NCBI RefSeq assembly: GCF_044704955.1 | Contig: NC_091979.1 | Span: forward strand, 110,174,001-110,238,000 | Source: Pristiophorus japonicus | Lineage: Eukaryota | Reading direction: 5' to 3' | Length of the DNA stretch: 64,000 nt | Translations under genes and position numbers: made by a program | Notes under the pieces: model-generated | What the model saw: the letters and a program-made list of their open reading frames with translations, nothing else | What the model was told of the DNA's origin: nothing | Databases searched by the model: none | Part shown: piece by piece, positions 51,757-54,923 of the stretch | Position numbering within the stretch: position 1 is the first letter of the stretch | Layout of the letters: each line of letters begins with the position of its first letter

Positions 51757-53491
51757 ACTGGCGACGAGATACAAATAGCGAACACAAAGATGCAGTGAAC
51801 AGTGGGCATCATGGAGAAATTCTTGGAGGGAGATGATTGGGAAACTTTTGTAGAGCGACTCGGCCAATACTTCATGGCCAACGAGCGAGATGGGGAAGAG
51901 AGCGCTGCCAAACAAAGGGCGATCCTCCTCACCGTCTGTGGGACATCAAAGTATGGCCTCATGAAGAATCTGCTCACGCCAGCGAAATCCACGGAGAAAT
52001 CGTACGACGATTTGTGCACACTGGTCTGAGAGCATTTGAACCCGAAGGAAAGCATTCTGATGGTGAGGTACTGGTTCTACACCTACAAAAGGTCTGAAGG
52101 CCACGAAGTAGCGAGTTATGTCGCTGAGCTAAGACGCCTTGCAAGGAGACTATGGTGAAATGGAACACCTCCAACGAGTGTGCAGGCGAGCTGCAAAGCC
52201 CGTTAAACCTGCAAAGCACCATGTTGCAGAGGAGGACAGATCCACGGAGAATCACCATGAACCAGAGCCTCAGATCGAGGAGGTAGAGGTACATGGGGTA
52301 TACACATTCACCACGAACTGTCCCCCGATAATGCTGAATGTTGAACTAAAAGGACTCCCGGTGTCAATGGAGCTGGACACAGGCATGAGCCAGTCCATCA
52401 TGGGCAAAAAGACTTTCGAAAGATTGTGGTGCAACAAGGCCTCAAGGCCAGTCTTAACTCCAGTTCGCACGAAACTAAGAACTTACACAAAAGAACTGAT
52501 TCCTGTAATCGGCAGTGCTACCATAAAGGTCTCCTACGATGGAGCGGTGCACAAGCGACCACTCTGGGTGGTATCGGGCGATGGTCCCATGCTGCTCGGC
52601 AGGAGCTGGCTGGGAAAGATACGCTGGAACTGGGACGACGTCCAAGCACTATCGCCCGCTGACGACACTTCGTGTGCCCAGGTCTTTCACAAATTTCCTT
52701 CGCTGTTCGAACCAGGCATCGGGAAATTCCAAGGAGCAAAAGTGCAGATCCACCTAATTCCAGGGGCGCGACCCATCCATCACAAGGCAAGAGCAGTACC
52801 GTACATGATGAGAGAAAGGGTAGAGATCGAGCTAGACTGGCTGCAAAGAGAGGGCATCATTTCACCAATCGAATTCAACGAGTGGGCCAGTCCTATCATC
52901 CTAGTCCTCAAGGGAGACGGCACCGTCAGTATCTGTGGCGATTACAAAGCAACTCTCAATTGTTTCTCCCTGCAGGACCAATACCCACTACCAAAGGCCG
53001 ATGACCTCTTTGCAACGGTGGCTGGAGGAAAGATGTTCACAAAGCTGGATCTGACTTCAGCCTATATGACGTAGGAACTGGAGGAATCATCGAAGGCCCT
53101 CACCTGCATCAACACGCACAAAGGTCTTTTTGTTTATAACAGATGCCTGTTTGGAATCCAATCAGCGGCGGCAATATTCCAGAGAAACATGGAAAGCTTA
53201 CTGAAGTCAGTGCCGCACACCGTGGTCTTCCAGGATGATATCTTGGTCACAGGTCGGAACACAGTCGAGCATCTGCAGCACCTGGAGGAGGTTCTTAGTC
53301 GACTCAACCGCGTGAGGCTCAAAGATGAAATGTCTATACAAGCAGACTGCCTTCTGTGGAGCAATCGAGTAGTGGTCCCCAAGAAGGACAGAGACACGTT
53401 CATCAATGACCTCCACACTACCCACCTAGGCATCGTAATGATGAAAGCGATAGCCAGATCCCACGTGTGGTGGCCCGGTATCAATGCGGAC

Positions 53492-53737
53492 TACCTAGAC
53501 TATATGGACTACCTGGCAGCTCTGGCTAAAGCACCTTTTGCTACTCATGGATATGGAGCTTTTTTGACACTCAGTATTTTGGACTGATACTATAAACCAG
53601 ATCTCACACACGAAGAGGCAGTGGAGCTCTTGAAGAAGTGCTTCAAGGTGATCCAAAAGCAAATTATTCTGAATCTTTCCTCCTTTACTGTTCGGATCAT
53701 TGATAAAGATGGTGTTCATGATATGGAGCAGATTTCT
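53492..53737 (+). pseudogene. PSMB2: PSMB2 (proteasome subunit beta type-2) C-terminal fragment inside the LTR element's integrase
   Basis: [78 protein letters not shown] matches PSMB2 ([31 protein letters not shown]...ILNLPTFSVRIIDK.GIHDL). One frame, with a TGA at 53585-53587 in place of R. Confidence 0.92.
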
Positions 53738-54923
53738 GTCAAAAATCTAATTTTACCTTCAGTATCTGAATCATCTAATGGGCAGACCACACCAACAGAC
53801 CTTAATAATTCTTGGTCTGCAATCCAGAGCTATGAGATTCCTGTGTTCACAGATGTAATACATGCTCGCAGTTAAGCAATGTACCCAGGGAGGCGCCGCT
53901 AAGTTTATGGTCTTGGCCCTCCAAACCATGGTCTAGGGTACATGCCGACTATGCAGGCCCATTCTTGGGTAAAATTTTCCTCGTGGTTGTAGACGCGTAC
54001 TCCAAGTGGATTGAATGTGAGATAATGTCGGCTAGCACGTCCGCTGCCACTACTGAAAGCCTGCGGGCCATGTTTGCCACTCACGGCTTACCCGATGTCC
54101 TGGTGAGCGACAACCGGCCATGTTTTACCAGTGCTGAGTTCAAAGAATTCATGACCCGTAACGGGATCAAACATGTCACATCTGCCCCGTTTAAACCAGC
54201 GTCCAATGGTCAGGCAGAGAGAACAGTGCAAACCATCAAGCAAGGCTTGAAGAGGGTAACTGAAGGCTCACTGCAGACTCGCCTATCCCGAGTCCTGCTT
54301 AGCTACCGCACGAGACCCCACTCGCTCACTGGGATCCCACCTGCTGAACTGCTCATGAAAAGAGCACTTAAGACAAGGCTCTCGTTAGTTCACCCTGATC
54401 TACATGAACAGGTAGAGAGCAGGCGGCTTCAACAACGTGCATACCATGATAGCGCAAATGTGTAATGCGAGATTGAAATCAATGATCCTGTATTTGTATT
54501 GAATTATGGACAAGGTCCTAAGTGGCTTCCTGGCACCGTTGTGGCCAAAGAGGGGAGCAGGTTGTTTCGGGTCAAACTTTCAAATGGACTAATTCACCGG
54601 AAACACTTGGACCAAATTAAACTCAGATTTACGGACTATCCTGAGCAACCCACCTTGGACCCTACCTTTTTTGATCCCCCAACATACACACCAGTGGCAA
54701 CCAGCACCACAGTTGACCTTGAAGCAGAACCCATCATCCACAGCAGCCCAGCAGGACCCAACACACCAGTCAGCCCAGCAAGGCCAGCTGCACAGCAGCC
54801 AGCGAGGGCCCAACAAATGATTCAACAATACCAGCTTTCACACCGAAACCATCAACCAGGGCAAGAAGGGCCCCAGATCAACTCACATTATAAATAGTTA
54901 CATTATTGGCTTGGGGGGAGTGT

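Follow-up and report, generated by a model that had tools for sequence, protein, structure and literature searches.

The 64-kb window (the whole stretch of DNA that was analysed, 64,000 nucleotides) contains a complete Ty3/Gypsy insertion, which occupies 5.6% of it and carries a fragment of the proteasome gene PSMB2 between the two halves of its integrase zinc finger. The features of the host element are the following.

51545-55133 (+): Ty3/Gypsy element, 3,589 bp, delimited by TG..CA LTRs and an exact 5-bp TSD
51540-51544 (+): 5' TSD, 5 bp, GTAAT, the same as 55134-55138
51545-51756 (+): 5' LTR, 212 bp, TG...CA, aligned to the 3' LTR
51759-51768 (+): primer-binding site, recognised by its position 2 nt past the 5' LTR and its TGG start
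51799-52131 (+): N-terminal remnant of gag with TGA at 52027 (tblastn with intact relatives, residues ~3-112)
52130-52154 (+): site within gag at which about 105-130 codons have been deleted (tblastn with relatives)
52154-53323 (+): end of gag, protease, and RT as far as the RVT_1 core reaches, with TAG at 53072
53321-53323 (+): in-frame deletion junction, about 305 codons of the RT end and RNase H gone
53321-53491 (+): N-terminal (HH) half of the integrase zinc finger (Pfam Integrase_H2C2)
53836-54630 (+): rest of integrase (CC zinc-finger half, core, C-terminal region), with TAA at 54463
54913-54920 (+): polypurine tract, 8 purines, ending 3 nt short of the 3' LTR
54924-55133 (+): 3' LTR, 210 bp, TG...CA
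55134-55138 (+): 3' TSD, 5 bp

The order of the domains recognised with Pfam and tblastn (gag, protease, RT, integrase zinc finger, integrase core) is that of Ty3/Gypsy elements, gag-PR-RT-(RH)-IN, in which RNase H has gone through the in-frame RT-IN deletion. Paired TG..CA LTRs, a primer-binding site, a polypurine tract and a short TSD are present as well, and the element is a complete insertion made by integrase. The two LTRs differ by 12 substitutions over 211 aligned columns, plus 2 gap columns. The primer is presumably tRNA-Ser; no tRNA genes were found within the 64-kb window, and the search of the window for RNA families returned none.

The top named pol matches were 'K02A2.6-like' or Gypsy integrase. 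Among the best 120 of 953 matches the closest integrase relative came from the hagfish Eptatretus burgeri (71% amino-acid identity), and none of these 120 was a shark element of the same family; a tblastn search gave 66% for a hagfish Gypsy integrase over 256 aa. The hagfish match (71%, window 53842-54462) stands well above the other listed matches (60% or less), which may be due to horizontal transfer between the hagfish and shark lineages or simply to shark models being missing from the matches. The element is K02A2.6-like and probably of the Mag type, a placement made from its size, TSD and the K02A2.6-like names; LTRs of ~210 bp, a TSD of 5 bp and a full length that would come to ~4.5 kb agree with the Mag rows in Table 1 of PMC3286476. 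Compared with K02A2.6-like or Mag-clade elements, the present copy is doubly deleted and non-autonomous.

The extent of this damage is given by the alignments with relatives. In gag, four of them (P0129, P0166, P0226 and P0107) skip from residue ~111 to residues 226-252 over about 25 nt. At the RT/RNase H junction, 304-311 codons are absent according to nine of the 11 relatives that yielded a value, the remaining two giving 224 (a low-quality model) and 17 (an over-extended alignment). Pfam recognised RVT_1 (E=3e-10), Integrase_H2C2 at model positions 1-46 of 59 (E=1.7e-7) and the integrase core as rve (E=1e-14), while the protease was below the cut-off. The element is thus a non-autonomous derivative, with stops of its own at 52027, 53072 and 54463. 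A first reading of this DNA, made from its letters and open reading frames (the sequence-only reading), had missed both large internal deletions and the TAG at 53072 in RT, which lies upstream of the junction with PSMB2.

The PSMB2-derived sequence and its surroundings are composed as follows.

53492-53835 (+, sense): PSMB2-derived insert, about 344 nt, its ends uncertain by about 6 nt
53488-53514 (+): left junction with a 9-nt direct repeat (53488-53496 and 53506-53514)
53495-53749 (+): PSMB2 codons 115-199, ungapped to Scyliorhinus torazame PSMB2, 84.7%
53748-53835 (+): probable native stop TAA (53748-53750, 2 nt out of frame), then about 85 nt of probable 3' UTR

The insert differs from the flanking pol in composition, with a GC content of 40% and a CpG o/e of 0.15 against 50-51% and 0.66. 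Its translation matched PSMB2 residues 115-196 in PDB (E=5e-34), the six best protein matches were all chondrichthyan (80-85%), and in the tree (built without the Rana sequence) the insert grouped with chondrichthyan PSMB2 with support of 92/85, on a longer branch. The six matches and the tree show the donor to be the host lineage's own PSMB2, which is what is expected of a retrocopy. Besides 8 missense changes and a probable frameshift, the insert has one nonsense codon. This is the TGA at 53585, where five of the six chondrichthyan sequences have Arg, and an R-to-TGA change was correctly noticed in the sequence-only reading.

The same reading had missed that the insert runs on past DMEQIS and through the native stop to the probable 3' UTR. 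The last ~85 nt were read as 3' UTR because five full-length chondrichthyan proteins are 199 aa long and a shorter isoform ends alike, so that the copied coding sequence would extend through its stop codon into about 85 nt of untranslated sequence. No protein matches were found past PSMB2 position 199, and nothing similar to the presumed 3' UTR was found elsewhere in the window. A C-terminal extension of shark PSMB2 was also considered as the source of the 3' tail and was rejected, since the chondrichthyan proteins stop at 199. The window holds neither the parent PSMB2 gene nor a second copy of the insert.

A second PSMB2 model from S. torazame (P0090, scyTo_0010274) is diverged and truncated, suggesting that further PSMB2 pseudogenes occur in sharks.

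Intron positions were located with the help of 89 named PSMB2 gene models (89 of 99 matches, 10 without a usable source name being omitted). Relative to the shark protein, breaks or insertions in these models cluster after residues 30, 71, 95, 149/150 and 166/167, in agreement with the six-exon structure of human PSMB2. Two of the positions, taken from gene models of non-shark vertebrates, fall within residues 115-199, namely 149/150 (6 models) and 166/167 (14 models); past residue 166, six models continue with VS or VR, that is, with a translated splice donor. An isoform of the basking shark that skips residues 31-71 indicates that at least the first two intron positions are common to sharks. 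No gap interrupts the insert at either of the two positions within residues 115-199 (about 53600 for codon 150, 53650/53651 for the end of codon 166), and it is therefore intronless. A cryptic intron at AAG/GTG (53648) was rejected, as the alignment stays in frame there. Since two conserved intron positions are crossed without an intron, and since the coding sequence apparently continues through the stop into the UTR, a spliced PSMB2 mRNA is a well-supported candidate for the template. Judged by the models of other vertebrates, the insert is contiguous over the parental exon junctions, and the intronless mRNA origin proposed in the sequence-only reading is supported.

That reading had also described the insert as sense-oriented and lacking both a poly(A) and a TSD, which holds at the thresholds used here: no poly(A) and no AATAAA or ATTAAA was found in 53400-54000, and no TSD was found around the insert when exact repeats of 5-6 nt, repeats of 7-11 nt with 1 mismatch and repeats of 12-20 nt with 2 mismatches were sought. 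The combination of a 3' poly(A) and a 7-20 bp TSD, which marks L1-type retrocopies, is thus absent. A LINE-mediated (L1/Tx1/CR1) retrocopy might have been target-primed, after internal priming in the 3' UTR, and have landed in the element later. LINE fragments are abundant in the window (RVT_1 and endonuclease matches), and 14,081 retrocopies are given for cartilaginous fishes in a preprint in which vertebrate counts track non-LTR content (bioRxiv 10.64898/2026.06.26.734816). However, a poly(A), an A-rich 3' priming site or a TSD should still show at about 3% divergence, and none does, which makes this route very unlikely.

The reading frame that starts at 53075 goes through RT and the zinc-finger half directly into PSMB2, and integrase picks up again in another frame at 53836/53839 (SCVHRCNTC). 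The Integrase_H2C2 match breaks off at 46 of 59 positions, and the HHCC motif is accordingly split. In intact relatives exactly 2 codons lie between the last left and the first clear right residue (20 of 20 measurable, 21 tried); the second of them is matched by the codon at 53836. The loss of element sequence at the insert is thus at most 6 nt, as judged at codon level with a closest relative of 71% amino-acid identity. The in-frame switch into PSMB2, the resumption of integrase in another frame and the near absence of loss had all been claimed before and are upheld by these alignments, as is a repeat at the left junction. The repeated 9-mer, GGACTACCT, occurs in the window only at 53488 and 53506, spanning the junction at the first site and recurring 18 nt inside the insert at the second. 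By chance, a 9-mer repeat within 30 nt overlaps 1.3% of the element and 2.4% of window positions; the repeat is unusual, not extreme. Its first 4-5 bases are the element's own codons, and this word shared by the element and PSMB2 at the left junction lies 18 nt away from its PSMB2 counterpart. The repeat reads best as a shared short word together with a small templated duplication. Locally templated junction repeats are left by RT slippage and by polymerase-theta end-joining alike, and therefore this one does not decide the mechanism. An 8-nt inverted match (53518-53525 and 53824-53831) was also considered as a junction feature; it has no extension and was taken as chance.

An element that is continuous over the insert, with at most 6 nt lost, is in keeping with the repair of a break in a resident copy, in which PSMB2 cDNA, or mRNA reverse-transcribed at the site, would have been used as a patch via microhomology- or theta-mediated end-joining. 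The retrotransposon would then be the target only. Such captures are documented. In mouse zygotes, CRISPR breaks took up pieces of spliced mRNA (about 310 and 800 bp) that were incomplete on both sides and showed short microhomologies (Ono et al. 2015, PMC4516963). Single-copy Pack-TIRs are described as arising by gap-filling at breaks inside elements already in place, which lose little of their sequence (Tan et al. 2021, PMC8277862). Like the captures in both papers, the PSMB2 insert measures a few hundred bp, is cut short on either side, lacks a poly(A) and a regular TSD, and has left its target nearly intact. The templated 9-nt duplication at the junction would fit as well, and five of the 12 zebrafish rows in Table S8 of PMC5131818, classed there as 'uncertain', are truncated at both ends without an LTR flank, indicating that such events are not rare. 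On the other hand, the captures in PMC4516963 and PMC8277862 concern any broken DNA and either orientation, while here the target is a retroelement and the insert is in sense orientation and seems as old as the element. For a repair event, the break must have struck an LTR element (5.6% of the window), the orientation would be a coin toss, and the insert should be younger than the LTRs, which it does not seem to be (likelihood ratio 2-4). Taken together, capture during break repair is a serious alternative, though a less likely one than template switching.

The insert also has much in common with the LTR-mediated retrocopies of Tan et al. 2016 (PMC5131818), which are partial, sense, intronless pieces of mRNA that lie between the two LTRs of a single element and are incomplete at either end, spanning CDS and 3' UTR, without poly(A) or TSD and with few extra bases at the junctions; the zebrafish cases in that paper include Gypsy flanks, as here. 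In the PSMB2 case, too, the flanks belong to one element with both LTRs, and neither a poly(A) nor a TSD is present. The difference lies in the continuity of the element. Among the 15 fly cases described in PMC5131818 there is none in which foreign sequence interrupts an otherwise continuous element, and Table S2 of that paper gives 832-7,910 bp replaced in all 12 measurable fly cases (3 of the 15 not being measurable); discontinuity serves there to distinguish recombination from an insertion that struck an element already in place. Whereas 0.8-7.9 kb was replaced in those cases, at most 6 nt was lost here, and the internal ORFs lack two codons or fewer at this place instead of having a part replaced. 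The PSMB2 insert is therefore classed as a partial retrocopy inside a Gypsy element that is now dead, and not as a canonical LTR-mediated retrocopy, because the defining discontinuity is absent; its capture probably works like that of one.

The age of the insert was compared with that of the LTRs. Nine amino-acid-changing differences at 192 nonsynonymous sites (4.7%) are absent from all six chondrichthyan sequences, against an LTR rate of 2.8% (12/422 site-lineages), which gives an insert/LTR ratio of 1.65 (95% CI 0.61-4.3). The ratio falls to 1.13 (0.35-3.3) without three CpG-type Arg changes, and to 0.96 if the junctional change is omitted too. The likelihood ratio of 'same age' over 'any later time' is 2-4, a value to be read together with LTR gene conversion, possible species-specific residues among the nine differences and small counts; with the CpG changes omitted, an insert of half the element's age stays compatible (P=0.09-0.17). 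By this comparison the insert and the integration are of about the same age, and co-integration is favoured 2-4x over later arrival.

The slightly greater divergence of the insert than of the LTRs (a ratio of 1.65, not significant) would also be in line with copying at the DNA level, by gap-filling or ectopic conversion, from an older processed PSMB2 pseudogene, with no reverse transcription at this step. The diverged second model of S. torazame fits such a scenario in kind, but P0090 carries none of the four derived changes of the insert in the stretch that it covers (residues 116, 131, 145 and 153), and no donor is present in the window, though gap-filling donors are usually near according to PMC8277862. 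This scenario is highly improbable. An assembly chimera or contamination is extremely improbable: the nonsense codon, the 8 missense changes and the probable frameshift are not those of a present-day transcript, the insert belongs to the host's own lineage, and the window is without N.

The sequence-only reading had gone further and proposed a pol-PSMB2 fusion that was later disabled by the R-to-TGA change. A once-functional fusion is rejected because the insert shows no sign of purifying selection and decays at about the neutral LTR rate, TAG 53072 lies upstream, RNase H was lost with the ~305 codons, gag has a deletion as well, and the insert's own stop would truncate the product ahead of the integrase core. 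With stops at 53072 and 53585 and 9/192 changes, which is at or above the LTR rate, the locus does not look like a functional chimeric retrogene, and the in-frame joining has a chance of 1 in 3. The insert and the element are both now dead, and the likely function is none.

The insert, best explained as a partial retrocopy of spliced host PSMB2 mRNA in a non-autonomous Ty3/Gypsy element, was made, with a probability of roughly 0.55, by RT template switching in the particle. PSMB2 mRNA would have been co-packaged into the virus-like particle, and during minus-strand synthesis RT might have quit the element RNA just past the zinc-finger cysteines, switched to the 3' UTR of the PSMB2 mRNA and gone on for about 340 nt, as far as the CDS. 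A single slip of RT would have left the 9-nt duplication, and a 4-5 nt shared word (GGAC/T) could have mediated its return within two codons of the exit point, after which the chimeric cDNA would have been integrated by integrase supplied in trans. The deletions in gag and in RT/RNase H may be due to the same sort of RT jump, in this round or earlier. On this account no usable fusion would ever have been encoded, and decay would have been neutral since.

The supporting observations are the intact LTR ends, primer-binding site, polypurine tract and 5-bp TSD, the grouping of the insert with chondrichthyan PSMB2, the sense orientation, the truncation of both insert ends, the lack of a poly(A) and a TSD around the insert, the LTR-like age and the two other large deletions in the same copy; RT switching is described as producing deletions and insertions (PMC3187697). 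The prior, too, favours an LTR-mediated origin, since five of the 12 zebrafish rows in Table S8 of PMC5131818 are LTR-mediated (5 others being uncertain and 2 non-LTR retrocopies) and a random insertion would land in the element, with 5.6% of the window, only rarely. Against template switching stands the replacement of 6 nt or less of the element, which by a rough judgement, not computed, weighs ~15-fold against it, while sense orientation, age and deletions weigh ~4-fold for it. LTR-mediated template switching, as advanced in the sequence-only reading, consequently remains the likeliest single mechanism on account of sense orientation, truncation and age; what does not agree with it is the continuous element, unlike all 15 fly cases.

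Host exonic sequence within an LTR element is also known from retroviral oncogene transduction. Maize Bs1, as described in PMC5131818, is a further case. Unlike Bs1 and oncogene transduction, the PSMB2 locus gives no sign of selection, of several copies or of a fusion frame that is open. It is unlikely that an out-and-back switch without net deletion, a mode absent from the 12 fly cases that were measured, was followed by the spread of a non-autonomous, PSMB2-carrying subfamily in the shark genome, in the manner of Bs1; if it was, LTR-driven transcripts could yield small RNAs against an essential proteasome gene.

Protein collections were searched for similar fusions. None of 98 matches of 146-466 aa contained an integrase domain, none of 10 matches over 466 aa contained proteasome and integrase domains together, and none of the top 150 of 14,081 representative matches read through from integrase into PSMB2 past query residue 147, these being weak negatives as pseudogenes are rarely annotated. 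Among the top-ranked literature matches, with few subscription journals, there was no PSMB2 retrocopy in an LTR element and no LTR-mediated retroposition in a shark; PMC5086612 was drawn on in addition. The locus is a gene-fragment capture of a known kind, the only oddity being that almost no element was lost. It offers a clean, datable capture of host mRNA in a cartilaginous fish, a group that does not appear among those covered by the animal LTR-retroposition survey as presented in PMC5131818. The continuous flanks also make it a test case of whether a retrocopy within an LTR element was made by the element or merely landed there, which is usually assumed.

Several other repeats and captures are found in the window. 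A weak Myb/SANT-like DNA-binding domain (34348-34923, +) was recognised below the cut-off (E=6e-4); such domains occur in Harbinger-type transposons. A degenerate tandem array of about 21-nt units with a telomere-like CCCTAA core is located at 38934-39347. GC-rich repeats at 50400-51120 and 58790-59200, the first with an internal tandem array of 29-32 nt, apparently represent a non-autonomous repeat family. LINE fragments of either orientation, with a mutual similarity of about 85-95%, are densely clustered at 11900-33400 and 56600-58100; RVT_1, endonuclease and a GDSL-esterase ORF1 (25057-25455) were identified among these fragments, which we take to be of the CR1/L2 type.

An element of 1,629 bp at 5074-6702 (-) is flanked by an exact 8-bp TSD (5066-5073 and 6703-6710) and has imperfect terminal inverted repeats, which start with CAGTGG. 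It holds the frameshifted 5' part of a sorting nexin gene of the SNX9/18/33 family (SH3, PX and the start of BAR). It looks like a Pack-TIR of the hAT type, an assignment that we assume from the 8-bp TSD and the ends. This element looks like a second, independent host-gene capture within 64 kb, possibly as interesting as the PSMB2 insert.
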